Positions 22,203 to 33,065 of a stretch of DNA of 35,620 nucleotides are shown in pieces; position 1 is the first letter of the stretch, and each line of letters begins with the position of its first letter. The notes beneath the pieces were generated by a model. It was not told the DNA's origin and ran no database searches. It saw only the letters and a list, made by a program, of their open reading frames with translations. The position numbers and the translations under genes are program-made. Origin of the DNA: a virus (lineage: Duplodnaviria > Heunggongvirae > Uroviricota > Caudoviricetes); IMG/VR virus record IMGVR_UViG_3300029643_000041, one strand, 5' to 3'.

Positions 22203-22886
22203 TTAAGGCATTCTATTCTCAAAAACATGCTTTATCGCAGTGGTAAAGCATCTATCTTTTACATTCTTTTTAAACTCATCAAAGACCATAGATCTAACAT
22301 CTTCAATTTCACATCCTGATTCAATAAGCTGAGATGCACATCCGACCAGTTCCTTTATTAATGTCATGCTTAATTCTATTGCACGTCTTCTTTCCGCCTT
22401 GACTCCTCCTGAGGACGGGTTTAAGTTAAATACTCTTAACGTAACCTCTGCCATTTTGTGTTCTTTCTCATTCAAGCCTTCTCTAATATGAACATCACCA
22501 TTTTCCAAAAAATGGAAAAAAACATCTGGATTTTGTCTATCAGCTTTAATTAAATCATCATCGTTATATTTTTGCTTATCCTTATAAAACCCACACCTTT
22601 GCGGCTCACCACATGAGCCAAACAAATTAGACCACTCGAAAGTTAAATTTTTGTAATAACTTTTCCTGTAAAAATGTTCAATATGCCTCTCAACTTTATT
22701 TTTGCCACCACTTTTATGATGCTCTATTTTTTTCTCGCAATAAGCACATAATTTACCTTGCATTTTTATTATTTCTTCCCATATTTCTTTTTTATCATTT
22801 GATGATAGGGAATTCCAATCATCCCTCCTATAGTCAAATTTATTAAGAACGGAAGGCCCTGGCATTTGCCTAGATAGATATTTCAT
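22203..22886 (-). CDS. HNH endonuclease, Septu PtuB-like retron effector component
   Basis: 227 aa; CAYCEKKIEHH...VERHIEHFYRK...CGEPQRC HNH/zinc motif; start overlaps the ATPase stop (ATGA); strongly AT-rich. Confidence 0.8.
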   Translation of the reverse strand: MKYLSRQMPGPSVLNKFDYRRDDWNSLSSNDKKEIWEEIIKMQGKLCAYCEKKIEHHKSGGKNKVERHIEHFYRKSYYKNLTFEWSNLFGSCGEPQRCGFYKDKQKYNDDDLIKADRQNPDVFFHFLENGDVHIREGLNEKEHKMAEVTLRVFNLNPSSGGVKAERRRAIELSMTLIKELVGCASQLIESGCEIEDVRSMVFDEFKKNVKDRCFTTAIKHVFENRMP

Positions 22887-24517
22887 TTTACATCCTTACT
22901 TCCAGAAAAGTGCTGATTTATCTTATTTTTGAACTCCAAAACAGATATAAGATCATCACACTCTTGAACTAAAGGATGGTCTAATCCGAAATGTTTAATA
23001 ACTTTTTCTCTTAACAAAAGAGCCTCGTCACTGCTATAACGATTAAGCTCAACCAATTTTTTATATTCTTCAAGCCAACCATTTTCTTTAGTAGAGGGTA
23101 TAGGATCAGTTCTCATTCCATATAAAAGTGCATCCTGATTACTAACACCTTTTATTTGATAGTCGGGGTGAGACACTATCAAATCATTAACACCATCTAC
23201 TTCCACTTCCTGTAGAATACGCACTGAACGAGAGCTAACAGTGGATAAAACCTGTGGGCTATGGGTAGTAATTACAAATTGAACATTTGGGAATGTAGAT
23301 GTCAAACGCTCAATAATTGTCTGTTGCCATTGCGGATGCAAATGCAAATCAATTTCATCAATTAAAACAATCCCATATCCCAATAGAGGATTAGATAAAT
23401 TTGGATTAAGTAAAATTAAACGTCGAGCCAAATCACCAACTAAAGTAAATATAGTTTTCTCACCTTGAGACAACTGTTGAATATCTAATTCAACCTCTCC
23501 TTTTTTAAGGATAATCTTATAATCATCATCACCATAAACAAGCTTAATCCACTGAAATTCAGGCAAGAACTTTAGAATGGTATTTATAACACTATCATAA
23601 AGTGATACTGCATTATTAAACTTATGTTCTCCTGATTGCAGAGATTTCATGTAGTTCAATTTTTCTTTAAGCGAAAGCTCTAAACCTTTTATAACTGTTG
23701 AATCAATATTATCAATCGCAGATAGTTGAGTTAATGTTGCTTTCAAACTCTGAATATCTGAAAATAACGCATTGATTGTCGTTTGTGACTCACTCAATTT
23801 CTCTTGTGAAGCTCTGTTATGAAGAAATACAAGCCATTGAAAAAAATCGGTAAAATCATTTCTGTCAAACTCGATTTCATCATACACATCGAATTTTGAC
23901 CATACAGTTTTAGTTTTAGCATTTTTTCTTTTCCTATCAACCCCACCGCCTATATAAGAACGCGCAATAGAATAATATGCCATCAAAGGCAAGCTTGCAT
24001 TATCAACATATTTATTCACAAGTCTATAAATACTTGCAAGTTTTTTTATCTCCAACAATTCATTATTTCTAGAATAATATGCCCCCTCTTTCGCTTTAGT
24101 AATCAAAATACTGGTATTAAAGTCCTTGAGTTTTATATTTGCATCAATTGATGCATACTCAACATCAACAGAGTTATTAACTTCATGGCTTTTAATATAA
24201 GTACCAGGCTTACTCTCCTTTTCAATATTTGATCTCAACCAACTCAAAACAATTGCTATTGCATCCAAAATAGTGCTTTTACCGAATCCGTTATCCCCGA
24301 CAAAAACAGTCAAATCATCTTCTAAAGAAATCTGTAGTTCTCTTATCCGTTTAAAATCATGTATACCTATTTTATTTAAATGAAACTTACTCTCATTTAA
24401 AGTAGATATTAGCTTTTGAAGCTCAACAGACTCCTTCAAATAATCCTCGTTTATCACATGTGATTCCAACTCTAAAAAATCAACATAGCAAGTCTCTAAA
24501 TTCATTTTATTTATCAT
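22883..24517 (-). CDS. P-loop ATPase, Septu PtuA-like retron effector component
   Basis: 544 aa; Walker A VFVGDNGFGKST, Walker B VLIDEIDLHLHP, then ITTHSP; translationally coupled to the RT upstream and the HNH downstream. Confidence 0.8.
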   Translation of the reverse strand: MINKMNLETCYVDFLELESHVINEDYLKESVELQKLISTLNESKFHLNKIGIHDFKRIRELQISLEDDLTVFVGDNGFGKSTILDAIAIVLSWLRSNIEKESKPGTYIKSHEVNNSVDVEYASIDANIKLKDFNTSILITKAKEGAYYSRNNELLEIKKLASIYRLVNKYVDNASLPLMAYYSIARSYIGGGVDRKRKNAKTKTVWSKFDVYDEIEFDRNDFTDFFQWLVFLHNRASQEKLSESQTTINALFSDIQSLKATLTQLSAIDNIDSTVIKGLELSLKEKLNYMKSLQSGEHKFNNAVSLYDSVINTILKFLPEFQWIKLVYGDDDYKIILKKGEVELDIQQLSQGEKTIFTLVGDLARRLILLNPNLSNPLLGYGIVLIDEIDLHLHPQWQQTIIERLTSTFPNVQFVITTHSPQVLSTVSSRSVRILQEVEVDGVNDLIVSHPDYQIKGVSNQDALLYGMRTDPIPSTKENGWLEEYKKLVELNRYSSDEALLLREKVIKHFGLDHPLVQECDDLISVLEFKNKINQHFSGSKDVK

Positions 24518-25452
24518 TATTTGTTTCCTTCCATCAGGAACTTAGTTATTAACTCACAACCATATTTTTTTTGTAACCTTAATAAAAAATCACCCTCCAA
24601 ATAATTTGCAAACGCAATCATCCCTTTGGTTTTATTTATTTCTTCGGAAGATAAGAGTCCCAAAGAATATTTATGAATCTTTGCAAACAGCATCCTTTTA
24701 CGATCGCGACCAATTGATAAATTGCCCTGAGGTGTAAGTGTTACACCAGTCACGTGCCGATTATGAGCCATCGATGTAAAAATTGTTTTAGATTCATTGA
24801 TTGATAGACCGGGAACATGGAGCGACAACATTTTTTTTACCACCTTAGGAACCCTGCACAATATATCCTTAATATTAGTTGAAAAAGTTATATCATCTGC
24901 ATACCTTGAATAAGTGATACCATTGTTACGGCACCAATCATCAAGACTCTTGTCAAAGTCATACATAACAAAATTACTAATAAATGGTGAGCTTGGCGCC
25001 CCTACACTTAATATCAACGTTGTACTTCTCTTTTTTCCCGGACGCCAAAAAAGCAAATTACGTAGGGTGTTCTCATCAAATGAATCCAATTTCAGCCCTG
25101 TGTTCTCAAGTTTCGAGAAAAATATATCAGGTTTAATTTTGTTAAAGAAGTTCTGAAAATCCATTTTAAGAATATAATTATTATCTTTATGCAACAATGC
25201 ATTATCTTTAATACTTTTTTTATATTCATATGCCATTGCCTTATGATGAACAGGCAGCTTTGGCTGTAGCAAAGATACTATAAATCTCTGTACGTTTTTT
25301 AGTTCCTTTGTCGGCTGAGCTATCACCCGAAAACCTGCGCCACGTTTAGGAATATAATAAACTTTATATTTTTTGGGGGCCTCATTTAAAAGTAATTGGA
25401 AAGCTAATCTATTATAATTAAACTTACTGATAATTTTAGAAGTTAGTTGCAT
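24517..25452 (-). CDS. Retron-type reverse transcriptase
   Basis: 311 aa; ILKMDFQNFF, SVGAPSSPFISNF, YSRYADDITF (YxDD box) and the retron-typical VTG triplet (HNRHVTGVTL); AGAGGGG Shine-Dalgarno before the ATG; preceded by a structured non-coding region. Confidence 0.85.
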   Translation of the reverse strand: MQLTSKIISKFNYNRLAFQLLLNEAPKKYKVYYIPKRGAGFRVIAQPTKELKNVQRFIVSLLQPKLPVHHKAMAYEYKKSIKDNALLHKDNNYILKMDFQNFFNKIKPDIFFSKLENTGLKLDSFDENTLRNLLFWRPGKKRSTTLILSVGAPSSPFISNFVMYDFDKSLDDWCRNNGITYSRYADDITFSTNIKDILCRVPKVVKKMLSLHVPGLSINESKTIFTSMAHNRHVTGVTLTPQGNLSIGRDRKRMLFAKIHKYSLGLLSSEEINKTKGMIAFANYLEGDFLLRLQKKYGCELITKFLMEGNK

Positions 25453-25700
25453 ATAACCCCTCTTAAAACCAAAGCGCCATGCAACTTTACATAGCGCTTT
25501 GACTCTTCACTAAAGACAGCGAAAGACACAGATTTCTCCTTCGCATATCTGCCCCGGGCAGGGATGCGAAGGAGAAATCTGTGTCTTTCGCAACCCTAAA
25601 CCGGACAATAAATTTAAGCCTGGCTAATCACCCGGCTGGAACCAATGTTCCTACACTAAAGAGCGTAATGATTTTAATGAACAAATAGATATAAGGCAAG
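25453..25700 (-). ncRNA. Candidate retron msr-msd non-coding RNA (limits approximate)
   Basis: Non-coding stretch directly 5' of the RT on the same strand; 28-bp perfect inverted repeat (arms 25519-25546 and 25564-25591, 17-nt loop) consistent with an msd stem; smaller hairpins at 25638-25651 and 25461-25490. Flanking a1/a2 repeats were not resolved by eye. Confidence 0.5.
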
Positions 25701-25704
25701 GCGC

Positions 25705-25735
25705 GCGCTCGTATCCCCGCCACGCCTGCCCGCTT
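25705..25735. other. cos-like GC-rich motif (candidate cohesive-end site)
   Basis: Minus-strand ggcgtggcggggatacgag matches 14 of 19 positions of the P2 cohesive end GGCGAGGCGGGGAAAGCAC as I recall it; lies between the Tum-module terminator and the retron. Confidence 0.3.
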
Positions 25736-25770
25736 TATGTAGTGGTTTTCATGCACCTGCATGATCTACG

Positions 25771-25797
25771 CAAAAGCCCGCCAGTTCTGGCGGGCCT
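25771..25797 (-). terminator. Rho-independent terminator closing the SOS/Tum-like operon
   Basis: Minus strand gcccgccag-aa-ctggcgggc followed by ttttg. Confidence 0.6.
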
Positions 25798-25930
25798 TAG
25801 CAAAAACGATCCTCAAACGATCATGCGATCTCATGCGGCATAGACATGCACTACAGAGCTAACGCCTCGCAAGGGCTCGTTGTTCAACCTTGCTGACGCC
25901 AGAAACAAGTTCAGACGCCAGCAACGTTTC

Positions 25931-26164
25931 TTAATGCAGCCAGCTGTCGTCTTCCCACACCTTCTGCATAATTTTCATCACTTGTTTTCTTTCTTCGTCC
26001 AGTTGCAGTCCGGTCAGTTCCACACCGTTAGAGCTACCTTTGCGGATACGAATTACCGTTTTGGGATACAGGGGGCGCAGATTGCGGTAAAGCTCGGATT
26101 CAAGGGCGTCCAGTGTAGACTGGCTAATCTTCTGCTCTTTATCGATCATTATTTCAATGCGCAT
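25931..26164 (-). CDS. DinI-family protein (Tum-like antirepressor C-terminal module)
   Basis: 77 aa from the internal Met with a GAGGTG Shine-Dalgarno; MRIEIMIDKEQKISQSTLDALESELYRNL...VWEDDSWL parallels E. coli DinI (MRIEVTIAK...). Confidence 0.8.
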   Translation of the reverse strand: MRIEIMIDKEQKISQSTLDALESELYRNLRPLYPKTVIRIRKGSSNGVELTGLQLDEERKQVMKIMQKVWEDDSWLH

Positions 26165-26174
26165 AAAAGTCACC

Positions 26175-26363
26175 TCAGCTGATGACATCCATTGAGCGGT
26201 TGTATTCGTGGGTTCTGATTTTTGCCATGAGTTCATCTGTCAGTTCAGAAACCCACTGCAGGGCCAGCCCCTTCTCTTCATCACTACACTCACTAGCCGC
26301 TACAAGCTTAAGAAAAAAATCAATGCGCTGGAGCTTCAAAGACTCCAAAAAATAGTCCTGCAT
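26175..26363 (-). CDS. Small acidic protein, first gene of the LexA-controlled operon (possible Tum N-terminal module)
   Basis: 62 aa ORF starting about 30-60 nt downstream of the LexA box; ends 10 nt before the DinI-like start. Confidence 0.45.
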   Translation of the reverse strand: MQDYFLESLKLQRIDFFLKLVAASECSDEEKGLALQWVSELTDELMAKIRTHEYNRSMDVIS

Positions 26364-26405
26364 CTTTCCTCCTATGACACCAAAGCAATACTGTATATAT
26401 AACCA

Positions 26406-26421
26406 CTGTTTATGTTTACAG
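26406..26421. promoter_or_regulatory. LexA operator (SOS box) CTGT-N8-ACAG
   Basis: ctgtttatgtttacag, overlapping a TATACT -10 element with a TTTACA -35 on the minus strand; an adjacent half-site tactgtatatata at 26389-26401. Confidence 0.65.
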
Positions 26422-26515
26422 TATATAATAATCTTACTGATGTAAAACGTTTTTTTACGCTCATCAGCCTGATATGCCTGGTATTATTAAGAGCACGAAT
26501 TGTTAACCCGCGTAA

Positions 26516-28888
26516 TTAATACAGGTTTCGCCACTTATCATCTTCCTGCAAACGCTGGTTCCGATAGAAGATACGTAGGCCTGCTCCTGACGGAATACTG
26601 CCGCCGCGAAGCAGTAAATCGACCTCTTTCTCGCTGCCATCAAATCCCCTGGACTTCAGTTCATACACGAGCTGCAGTCGCTGATGGTCTGTAATTCGCT
26701 GTTTGTAGTCTTTACGCCGTTTCGGTTTCACCAGGCGTAACCTTGCTGCCAGTTCCCGGCGCTCTTTTTTGCTCATACTGTGCAGGTAATCGTGCAACTC
26801 CTTGTCATCCATGCGGGTGATATCCGTTCTGGTATCTCCATCAGTTGATTTGTCTTTCCCTTGTTGGTACAAATTTTCAGCAAGGGGACAGTTATTGCCA
26901 CGAGTCCAAGGGGCGCAAGCGCCCTGGTCGGCTGCCGCCTCCTGAACGTCAACGGCTTTACGAACCATTTTCCACTTCACTGCATGAGTGCAGATCTTAC
27001 CCTCTGCAATGGGTGACCAGATGCCATAAATACGAATACCGTGATCGCCATAGGCGGTCGGCTCTTCGTTAATTTCATAAGCTGTTCTGATAAGGTGATA
27101 TTTGCGGGGAACCAGCACGCCGCCCTGCTTCATGATGTAGGTGGCAAAACAGCCAGCATCAGCAGCAGCCAGGATGGCATCAAGGCGTGGGTTATCCAGT
27201 ACCGGCGCACCTGCTTTTTTGTCCCCCTGCTGCCTTGCCGCCTGACCAGCCAGCAATCGCAGTTCACGGTAAGCCTGACGCCCCGGAATACCAAAGAAGC
27301 GGAATTGCTGAACACGATGCAGAGACGCCCAGGCATTAACGTATTCAGCGTTATCACGCAGGGATTTACCCGTTTCCTTGCTGATCTCACCAGCCAGACC
27401 ACGCCCGTCAATGTTCTTACTGATGTATTTCGCGATGTAGCTTGTTGGCGTACCTTTGCGCGGGTTTATCAGCTCAGACTTAAAGCGTGGTCCCGTGTTA
27501 TTACCCAGCTCCTCGCGGTCTTCACGAATGGCAAACTTACGCAGTAATGCAGTGATGGCGCGGCGGTCTTTTTTGCGCATAAAACACAACAGGTGCCAGT
27601 GAACTGTACCGTCATGATGCGGCTCAGCCACCCGCACGCCATACCAGCGCAATCCGGCTTTGTGCATCGCCTTACGAAATGCAGCAAACATGCCGACCAA
27701 ATAATCACTGCTTTGTCTTACTGTCGCGTTGGTCCAGGTCGGGTTTGGCCTGCCGTTATTTAGCGTGGAATGGAAACGTGACGGACAGGTGATGGTGTAG
27801 AAAACGGCGCAGTCACCACGCATTTCCGCGATAAGCTCCAGGCCTTTAACACAGGCCATCATCTCGTTGCGGCGATGCGCCGGGTTGCTGCTGCTGGCGT
27901 TTACCACATCCTCCATGTTCAGCGTGTCGCCGTCTTCGTTCACCAGTTCATGAGAACGGAAAAACTCCAGCGACTTACGGCGCTGCTCACGTTTATGCAT
28001 CACGGCTTCATAGCTGACATAGGGAGATGCTTTTTTGCTGACCAGGCAGACAGCACGCAACTGCTCTTCCCGCCATTCGCAACGCATCTTCCATAATTTC
28101 CGATACCACCAGTCGGCGCACAGCATACGCGCCAGCGAACCCGGAATGAGTTCATAAGGCACAGGTTTGCGGCGGTTTCTTTTCCGGCGGAGTTGCTCAA
28201 ACGCAGGCGGTATGACATCCAGTCGCAGGGTTTCTGCAGCCACCTTTTCCCATGTCTTGCGGATTTCTTCTGGCTTAACATCATCGGTGGCATACAAATC
28301 ACCACAAGCTACATCAAGGCACATACTCATATGCGCAGCTACCAGGGTGGACAGGCGTTTCACCTGATCCTGACTCATTTCAGGCAGAATCAGCAGGCCG
28401 TCCAGCCCTTCATGGCTTGCCATAAAGCGAAAAGAAGTGGATAGCTGACTGTCGCGTACATGCTCCAGCCGTTCCAGACATGGCTTAATCGTCTCACGCA
28501 AATAGCGGGAATAAGCCTTTGGCCTGCCAAGGCTGCTGAAGTATTCAATACGTTGCATCAGCGGCTTGCTGATATGGGAAGGCTGGGCATTGACGTCCGC
28601 CAGAATGACCATATCTGGATTAAAACGCTGCTGCTCATGCGCCAGCTTTGCCCGACTAATGAGCTTATCCTGCTCCATTTCGCGCTGGACAGGATCACGG
28701 GATTCATTAAAGAAATAACGCTCCCAGACCTGATCACTCAGTACCTCGCGGCGCAGGTGTTCCTGCTCGTTATCGGCAGCGTACAGAGCGATCAGGTTTG
28801 AAAGCGCAGAAACTGAAGATTGCTCTTCTGTCTCTACGTAAGGATTGATTGCTTTTTTCTCAGCATTCCAGGAATAGCTGTAGTTCAT
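26516..28888 (-). CDS. A: Rolling-circle replication initiator endonuclease A
   Basis: 790 aa (P2 gpA is 761 aa); contains the [10 protein letters not shown] metal-binding motif region of the GPA family. Confidence 0.9.
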
Positions 28889-32454: not shown

Positions 32455-32495
32455 CATCATGAAATCGTCAAGATAAAAGTTCACTTGGAGTGACC

Positions 32496-33065
32496 ATGAA
32501 TTTGGAGAAAGGCGGACGAGGCGCTATAGAGCGCATGGTAGAAGCTTATGGATTCAAAACTCGACAGGCGTTGTGCGATCATTTAGGAATCTCTAAAAGT
32601 ACACTCGCTACACGCTACATGCGTGACTCATTCCCAGCAGAATGGGTAATCCAGTGCGCCCTTGAAACGGGCACCTCGCTTAATTGGCTCACAACTGGAC
32701 ATGGTTCAAAGCAAACTTCAGGTAATACAAATACGATGGAAGTTGCTAAGTATGTATTATCTGATGGTGCCTTGCGTGAAGACGGTTTTTATATTTTTGA
32801 TAAGGGATTTCTACCCTCTACGTTTAAAAAACCTTTTGTCATCACAGATAACAATTCTGAATTTATTTGTGATAAAGAATTTGATGATATACGTGATGGT
32901 AAATGGGTAATAAGTATTGATGGCGAAATAACAATCCGCGACATTACTCGTTTACCCGGTGGAAGAATCTTCGTTGAAGGTGGAAACAGATCCTTCGAGT
33001 GCAAGATAGAAGATGTTGAAATAATTGGAAAAATTATAAGTTTAACAATTAAGTACGTTAGGTAA
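32496..33065 (+). CDS. cI: CI immunity repressor (186 CI-like)
   Basis: 189 aa from the ATG preceded by GGAG; N-terminal HTH (ERMVEAYGFKTRQALCDHLGISKSTLATRY), position upstream of int. Confidence 0.8.
   Translation: MNLEKGGRGAIERMVEAYGFKTRQALCDHLGISKSTLATRYMRDSFPAEWVIQCALETGTSLNWLTTGHGSKQTSGNTNTMEVAKYVLSDGALREDGFYIFDKGFLPSTFKKPFVITDNNSEFICDKEFDDIRDGKWVISIDGEITIRDITRLPGGRIFVEGGNRSFECKIEDVEIIGKIISLTIKYVR

Follow-up and report, generated by a model that had tools for sequence, protein, structure and literature searches.

The locus studied here raises a simple question: does a LexA-controlled operon composed of a 62-aa ORF and a 77-aa DinI-family ORF encode the phage induction protein Tum as two genes, or is it what is left of one broken gene? 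It lies in a 35,620-nt stretch of viral DNA (IMG/VR record IMGVR_UViG_3300029643_000041), referred to below as the window, which is a P2/186-like (Peduoviridae) prophage of the Fels-2/DuoHS type. A first-pass annotation had proposed that the locus is an SOS-controlled, Tum-like induction module in which the two halves of Tum appear as separate ORFs, and had listed a frameshift, a sequencing error, and a genuine two-gene organization as possible reasons for the split. The observation is confirmed by our analysis, and the interpretation is supported: the system is a real but ordinary member of the 186/PSP3/Fels-2 Tum family. In our reading, a P2-like (186-like) prophage of the Fels-2/DuoHS type very probably has its SOS operon here and encodes Tum by two genes, tumA and tumB (Table 1).

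Table 1. Positions of the SOS operon features, of the elements downstream, and of the cI gene in the window
Feature	Position	Strand	Basis or remark
cI, 186-type immunity repressor, presumed TumA target	32490..33065	+	likely start ATG at 32496
-35 hexamer TTTACA of p95-like SOS promoter	26441..26446	-	from sequence; kept in relatives; activity predicted
-10 hexamer TACTGT, inside LexA box 1	26418..26423	-	same hexamer as annotated 186 p95 -10
LexA box 1, CTGTAAACATAAACAG on minus strand (CTGTTTATGTTTACAG on plus strand)	26406..26421	-	CTGT-N8-ACAG pattern
Putative LexA box 2, imperfect, GTGGTTATATATACAG	26391..26406	-	one base in common with box 1
tumA, 62-aa putative antirepressor gene, stop codon included	26175..26363	-	Shine-Dalgarno AGGAGG upstream
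Intergenic gap, 10 nt, TGAGGTGACTTTTATG, with tumB ribosome-binding site GAGG	26165..26174	-	read from sequence
tumB, 77-aa DinI-family gene, stop codon included	25931..26164	-	Pfam DinI
Hairpin and invariant motif (…GCAAGGTTGAACAACGAG-N4-6-GCGAGGCGTTAG), operon 3' untranslated region	25857..25927	-	covariation
Predicted intrinsic terminator, GGCCCGCCAG-AACU-CUGGCGGGCU then UUUUG	25770..25797	-	minimum-free-energy fold
cos site GGCGTGGCGGGGATACGAG, right end of phage map	25708..25726	-	186 cos match

The genes around the operon are those of a 186-type genetic switch. The CI repressor encoded in the window shares 32% identity with 186 CI across 175 aa (E = 8e-38), and alongside it are Apl/Cox-like and CII-like genes (PHROG matches) and an integrase gene. 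A 790-aa ORF (26516..28888) corresponds to the P2 gpA-like replication gene, and the SOS operon sits between this gene A and cos.

The control region was examined on the minus strand, where a -35 and a -10 hexamer are spaced by 17 nt (TTTACA-17-TACTGT). As originally described, a consensus LexA box lies over the -10 of this promoter, and box 1 also overlaps the expected transcription start. The annotated p95 promoter of 186 has the same layout: its hexamers are TTCACA-N18-TACTGT, and its LexA site likewise overlaps the -10. The CTGT-N8-ACAG pattern has a single occurrence in the 35.6-kb window, which is box 1, and in a shuffle control, at least one match was found in 29 of 100 shuffles; by itself, the pattern is weak evidence and carries no significance. 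We take box 1 as functional not from the pattern alone but because the same position is kept in relatives, a CTG-N10-CAG box being found directly 5' of the TumA-like ORF in 14 of 14 of them, which come from several Peduoviridae genera and include distant ones. The SOS promoter was not reported by a simple sigma-70 consensus scan because TACTGT matches TATAAT poorly.

Next to box 1, the first-pass annotation had seen a half-site. The element is present, but it is a second, imperfect box (26406..26391) rather than a mere half-site: box 2 lacks the canonical CTG and is kept in all seven Fels-2-type relatives compared. In contrast, 186 and PSP3 have one LexA box each. With their one-base overlap, the tandem boxes of the window resemble colicin operators, where tandem overlapping boxes are bound by two LexA dimers and repression is very tight (PMC2994835). 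By analogy, firing of the window promoter may be delayed and confined to heavily damaged cells.

The product of the first gene, tumA, matches PHROG 698 (E = 3.6e-38) and 493 database clusters, with identities of 81 to 100% among the 120 matches listed. An exhaustive HMMER search with a TumA profile yielded 88 representatives at 50% clustering, nearly all of which are stand-alone proteins of 50 to 75 aa, while 186 Tum was not reached by this profile at E <= 0.001. BLASTP of the 62-aa ORF against 186 Tum produced no alignment either. The first-pass annotation had named a lack of similarity to the Tum N terminus as evidence against its reading, and the BLASTP result, taken alone, would have been just that. 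Profile-profile comparison gave a different picture. When a profile (A2) built from 37 diverse relatives of the window ORF was compared with a profile of 24 186-type Tum N-termini (A3) using hhalign, the two aligned over residues 3-44 of each with a probability of 96.7% (E = 3.7e-10). A narrow profile containing close TumA relatives only reached a probability of 15% against the Tum N-termini. The homology between TumA and Tum thus rests on the broad profile, since BLASTP was negative and the narrow profile scored only 15%.

Searching phage genomes with the Tum N terminus uncovered stand-alone homologs with LexA boxes upstream in ENT90, an Erwinia phage, and in several Yersinia phages. By eye, these Yersinia/Erwinia phage proteins bridge the TumA and Tum families, with the common motif ERIELIARL…C..DRE.AL.WIAEL. 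On these comparisons, we regard the 62-aa protein as a TumA-type homolog of the Tum N-terminal domain, in line with its initial reading as the N-terminal half of Tum. No match was found to TumA in Pfam, NCBIfam, or PDB sequence searches. Its AlphaFold2 model is a two-helix hairpin (pLDDT 89), for which a Foldseek search of the PDB returned generic helical matches only (E > 1) and no informative neighbors. The gene shows a pN/pS of 0.13 to 0.16 against diverged relatives, at a pS of 0.44 to 0.68 for these relatives. TumA-like ORFs preceded by a LexA box are also found without a DinI gene (in ENT90, ESSI-2, ev040, and Yersinia phages), and since such TumA-only modules exist, the DinI part is a dispensable accessory of the module.

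The assignment of the second gene is straightforward. Both the coordinates and the Pfam match agree with the initial description of a 62-aa ORF followed, after 10 nt, by a 77-aa DinI-family ORF. The tumB product matches Pfam DinI (PF06183) over profile positions 1-63 of 63 with E = 6.6e-23 (81.3 bits, cut-off 24.2), and a phmmer search reached the E. coli DinI structure 1GHH (E = 2.7e-6). It aligns with residues 71-145 of 186 Tum at 41% identity (E = 3e-24). The suggestion that both ORFs could be aligned to 186 Tum therefore held directly for the DinI ORF, whereas for the 62-aa ORF, it failed by BLASTP and held with the broad profile. Against the NCBIfam equivalog for chromosomal DinI, tumB scores 42.7, below the cut-off of 111, and because it falls under this cut-off, we consider it a member of the DinI family and not the host ortholog. 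Like tumA, it is under purifying selection, with a pN/pS of ~0.13 at the same range of pS in relatives.

Immediately after the tumB stop, we observed a 3' element consisting of a hairpin and then an invariant motif, GGTTGAACAACGAG-N4-6-GCGAGGCGTTAG. The hairpin stem shows compensatory changes, with six pairs that have double changes among 23 distinct copies. We found 87 full copies of this element in IMG/VR, 75 of which have a DinI-like ORF directly upstream. Its position is that of the partial terminator t95a of 186, and it marks the border of a variable cargo region. The element is not essential, since it is absent from DuoHS and Fels-2, and an Rfam search of the operon and its 3' untranslated region found nothing.

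Farther downstream, 134 nt beyond the DinI stop, there is an 11-bp GC-rich stem followed by UUUUG, which is also present in 813R9 and MLG42. This predicted hairpin (25797..25770) is likely the operon terminator, and it corresponds to the strong terminator with which the operon had been said to end, although it falls outside the interval originally assigned to the module. A simple terminator scan did not report it because its tail has only four T. The cos site comes next, with 15 of 19 bases matching the annotated 186 cos and an upstream flank that corresponds to the right end of the 186 record. Since cos follows directly, the operon is the final transcription unit on the right-hand side of the phage map, and the same holds in 186. 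An Ec78-type retron (msr-msd, RT, PtuA, and PtuB) lies between cos and the portal gene of the window, a cargo that is found at the same place in only 4 of 5,426 complete E. coli genomes.

The split arrangement is already known. The GenBank record of PSP3 describes tumA as "similar to 5' end 186 tum; UV induction of prophage" and tumB as "similar to dinI and 3' end of 186 tum," and the Fels-2 record (loci STM2728/STM2726.1) links its own DinI gene to PSP3 TumB. A passage in Lemire et al. 2011 (PMC3121763), after Bunny et al. 2002, states that tum is split in Fels-2 and PSP3, and the same article attributes to a personal communication from G. E. Christie that the upstream gene of PSP3 is the antirepressor. 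As in the window, both phages have a LexA-box promoter followed by a small upstream ORF and a DinI-like downstream ORF, with the module placed at the right genome end, past replication gene A. Fels-2 has a TumA (STM2728) 98% identical to that of the window and an identical TumB, and its downstream cargo genes differ. PSP3 has a divergent TumA type and a single LexA box, and its tumA stop codon plus one codon precede tumB in the same frame, whereas in the window, tumA and tumB do not share a frame, 10 nt lie between them, and there is a second, overlapping box.

Genetic evidence comes from the E. coli HS prophage DuoHS, in which the Phollow study (Nat Microbiol 2025, PMC12055606) made an in-frame deletion of "tum." The deletion, like lexA(Ind-), abolished mitomycin C-induced lysis and virion assembly, while an SOS reporter still fired in the deletion strain (PMC12055606). 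In the supplement of that study, the deleted gene has the locus tag ECHS_RS04495, which in RefSeq is a 189-bp ORF located 10 nt upstream of the DinI-like ECHS_RS04500, i.e., it is tumA. The DuoHS module is nearly the same as that of the window: TumA is identical at 61 of 62 residues (T51S), TumB at 77 of 77 (ECHS_RS04500), CI has 95% identity, and there is no difference in the promoter or boxes. The two differ in their downstream cargo, which is the hairpin-motif element, cos, and the Ec78-type retron in the window but two hypothetical genes in HS. Since TumA, TumB, and CI of DuoHS are this close, we count the proposed function as demonstrated on an almost identical module.

The other known systems are more distant. 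In its database record, 186 Tum (146 aa) "inhibits CI DNA binding," the p95 promoter and LexA site are annotated, and DinI-like short forms translated from internal starts are said to "modulate SOS induction." The 186 locus resembles that of the window in the LexA box over a TACTGT -10, the genomic position, and the CI/Apl/CII-type switch, but both parts are fused in one polypeptide, there is a single LexA box, and orf97 is next in the operon. Tum acts by sequestering CI (PMC7708051); in the passages of PMC3121763 and PMC7708051 that cite Shearwin 1998, binding to CI is shown only for 186 Tum. The dinI-gfoA and dinI-gftA operons of Gifsy phages are likewise LexA controlled and encode a DinI homolog and a small antirepressor that binds the repressor without cleaving it (PMC3121763). 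Their gene order is reversed compared to the window, with dinI first, and according to the same source, their antirepressors and repressors belong to unrelated families.

A working model can be put together from these elements. In the lysogen, LexA would sit on box 1, probably also on box 2, and cover the -10 and transcription start, keeping the promoter shut. Upon DNA damage, activated RecA would promote LexA self-cleavage, and a tumA-tumB mRNA that ends at the terminator before cos would be made. TumA would then bind the 186-type CI as Tum does in 186, freeing the lytic promoter and leading to lytic growth, and by the same precedent, it would do so by stoichiometric sequestration of CI and not by cleavage. 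TumB is a stand-alone DinI homolog equivalent to the C-terminal half of Tum. It is not the antirepressor; judging from what E. coli DinI does and how 186 is annotated, its most likely role is to modulate the activity of RecA filaments, and hence the strength or duration of the SOS signal. Of this model, our analysis shows that the sequences are homologous, that the module is conserved, and that both genes are under purifying selection, whereas LexA dependence and the requirement for tumA have been shown in near-identical or related phages. The initial proposal of a LexA-controlled, Tum-like induction module is thus borne out by 1) the layout of the locus, 2) the family matches, 3) the 186-type CI/Apl/CII context, and 4) the genetics of DuoHS.

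Could the two ORFs nevertheless be fragments of a single ~140-aa Tum, interrupted by a frameshift, a nonsense mutation, or a sequencing error and hence a pseudogene or an assembly artifact? Two features of the window invite this explanation, namely that 62 and 77 aa add up to nearly the 146 aa of Tum and that the DinI frame is open for 25 codons upstream of its ATG, where it overlaps tumA. The first-pass annotation had pointed to the corresponding longer ORF (25931..26236, 101 aa). The open frame does exist, but we rejected it as a gene: the extension is not conserved and is an accident of the window sequence, as the open stretch in frame with the DinI ATG varies between 4 and 25 codons among relatives, with unrelated sequences. 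When the module was compared with those of 813R9, Fels-2, SopEΦ, 500465-1, ST13-OXA48phi12.1, ST437-OXA245phi4.1, and MLG42, the TumA ORF was intact in all seven. A clean tumB was found in six, always starting with MR(I/V)EIMIDKEQ (MRIEIMIDKEQ in the window) behind a Shine-Dalgarno sequence, and in 500465-1, it is disrupted at both ends. Against this constancy, the tumA stop may be TGA, TAA, or TAG, and the gap to tumB ranges from 10 to 13 nt. The two-gene layout is kept in at least five Peduoviridae genera, and 1,125 of 5,426 complete E. coli genomes carry the module, BL21 and ATCC 8739 among them. Moreover, both ORFs have a pN/pS of ~0.13, none of the 88 representatives of the TumA family is fused to DinI, and in E. 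coli HS, the split module works. A broken tum is therefore extremely improbable. From the comparison of these sequences, we regard it as settled that the two genes are the genuine organization, each of them selected, and not the product of a frameshift or of a sequencing error, two options disfavored by the recurrence of the split across many phage genera and ~1,100 complete E. coli genomes.

Even with two genuine genes, the active antirepressor might be a full-length TumA-TumB fusion produced through stop-codon read-through or a programmed ribosomal frameshift. With a +1/-2 shift within 26236..26178, translation would indeed pass from the TumA frame into the open DinI frame, and in PSP3 and MLG42, the ORFs share a frame with a single TAG between them. 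However, the frame relation is not constant, as every one of the three phases arises with gaps of 10, 11, 12, and 13 nt. We saw neither conservation of the overlap stretch nor a shared slippery site, and a hairpin over the tumA stop and the tumB Shine-Dalgarno, flagged as terminator-like, was dropped because it is not conserved in relatives. TumA-only modules have no DinI gene to be fused to, and 186 itself also makes its DinI part separately. We consider such a fusion very unlikely, only slightly less so than a broken gene. A different objection concerns function: the 62-aa protein might not be a CI antirepressor and might have some other SOS-linked role, acting on the host or on a co-resident element, with induction triggered otherwise. 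The absence of a Pfam, NCBIfam, or PDB match and the generic helical hairpin fold of TumA are compatible with this, and it is odd for a specific binder that identical TumA proteins are paired with CI repressors that are 38 to 55% identical overall. Yet, deleting the gene in DuoHS abolishes induction with an intact SOS response, TumA is homologous to the non-DinI half of Tum, which is a demonstrated CI antirepressor, and the N-terminal domain of CI is well conserved among same-TumA phages, so that a conserved target surface exists. This makes some other role improbable, although less so than a fusion, and we retain the two-gene Tum module with TumA as its antirepressor.

The repressors themselves suggest where TumA might act. 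Among phages with a TumA that is at least 98% identical, the CI linker and C-terminal domain are 23 to 41% identical, whereas the N-terminal 48 aligned residues are 71 to 81% identical. In 186, which has a different Tum type, these 48 aligned residues are 42% identical. A tentative reading, which we think has less than an even chance of being right, is that TumA targets the conserved N-terminal DNA-binding domain of 186-type CI instead of an immunity-specific surface and is a shared, trans-acting cross-inducer. Its basis is the correlation between TumA and CI identities. If this were true, one TumA allele could inactivate CI proteins with divergent linkers and C-terminal oligomerization domains, and it could cross-induce P2-like prophages that have other CI types, whether these are co-resident or incoming.

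These findings bear on a very common class of P2-like prophages, since the module decides whether DNA damage, including that caused by quinolones and mitomycin C, wakes them, and about one in five complete E. coli genomes has it. They also reveal an annotation gap. In the RefSeq annotation of these genomes, the two genes are labeled "hypothetical protein" and "DinI-like family protein," and because tumA has neither an informative label nor a Pfam or NCBIfam model, automated annotation sees only "DinI" and misses the induction switch in ~1,100 complete genomes. Since the module adjoins cos and a slot that in the window is occupied by an Ec78-type retron, induction would also mobilize a defense system. 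Finally, the fusion found in 186 and the split form found here are two states of one module, of which antirepressor-only forms also exist.

Both ends of the phage 186 record are matched by the flanks of a cos site in the window (see the table). Since the site itself also matches 186 cos, we concluded that the prophage map ends directly after the terminator of the SOS operon tumAB. An Ec78-type retron defence system is placed between cos and portal gene Q; among 5,426 complete E. coli genomes, only 4 have this cargo in the same position.

Features of the prophage window and of compared loci
Feature	Position	Strand	Remarks
Putative LexA box 2	window 26391-26406	minus	imperfect (GTGGTTATATATACAG); one base common to box 1
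Hairpin-motif element	window 25857-25927	minus	conserved; directly 3' of tumB stop
cos site	window 25708-25726	minus	GGCGTGGCGGGGATACGAG; 15/19 bases as in 186 cos
Ec78-type retron system	window 22203-25664	minus	
Retron msr	25664..25600	minus	Rfam RF00170, 45.9 bits, slightly below gathering score 52
Retron msd region	about 25598..25461	minus	matches STnc400
Retron RT	25452..24517	minus	NCBIfam retron_St85_RT, E 5e-96
PtuA ATPase	24517..22883	minus	472 bits, slightly below NCBIfam cut-off 500
PtuB HNH nuclease	22886..22203	minus	
CI repressor	window 32490-33065		
Tum-N/TumA-like ORF	L004 (Erwinia phage ENT90) 859-1098		stand-alone; behind LexA box
Tum-N/TumA-like ORF	L005 898-1080		stand-alone; behind LexA box
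Tum-N/TumA-like ORF	L006 868-1101		stand-alone; behind LexA box
Tum-N/TumA-like ORFs	L014; L015		stand-alone; behind LexA boxes

At the other end of the operon, the consensus LexA box over the promoter (box 1) overlaps a putative second box, which is kept in Fels-2-type relatives and has no counterpart in 186 and PSP3. This overlapping layout is similar to that of colicin operons, where double SOS boxes confer very tight repression (PMC2994835).

The element 3' of tumB consists of a hairpin bordered by AACGTTGC…GCAAGGTT, whose stem varies in sequence through compensatory changes, followed downstream by the unchanging motif GGTTGAACAACGAG-N4-6-GCGAGGCGTTAG. Among 120 IMG/VR loci we found 87 full copies, 75 of them with a DinI-like ORF immediately upstream. 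The element is missing from the E. coli HS prophage DuoHS and from Fels-2, and has no match in Rfam. Possible roles are partial termination of transcription, stabilisation of the RNA, or marking where the cargo hotspot begins or ends.

We also noted an anomaly in the record of Escherichia phage 500465-1 (L010, 701-1231), where a local patch of the TumA ORF is frameshifted (…EERGWLCSGVSEL…) and the DinI gene has lost both its normal start and its stop, its frame extending into the 3' hairpin-motif region. These disruptions in the published record probably arose through errors of sequencing or assembly, or through decay.

When the window CI was set against that of phages sharing at least 98% TumA identity with the window (loci L016-L021), overall repressor identity was just 38-55%. 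The N-terminal DNA-binding domain was 71-81% identical, and the linker plus C-terminal domain just 23-41%.

Finally, TumA-like ORFs also stand alone, with no DinI gene downstream in the five compared loci tabulated, and many database proteins of 63-78 aa called 'Tum protein' correspond to the N-terminal half alone. These findings show that the antirepressor domain occurs fused to DinI, split from DinI, or alone.
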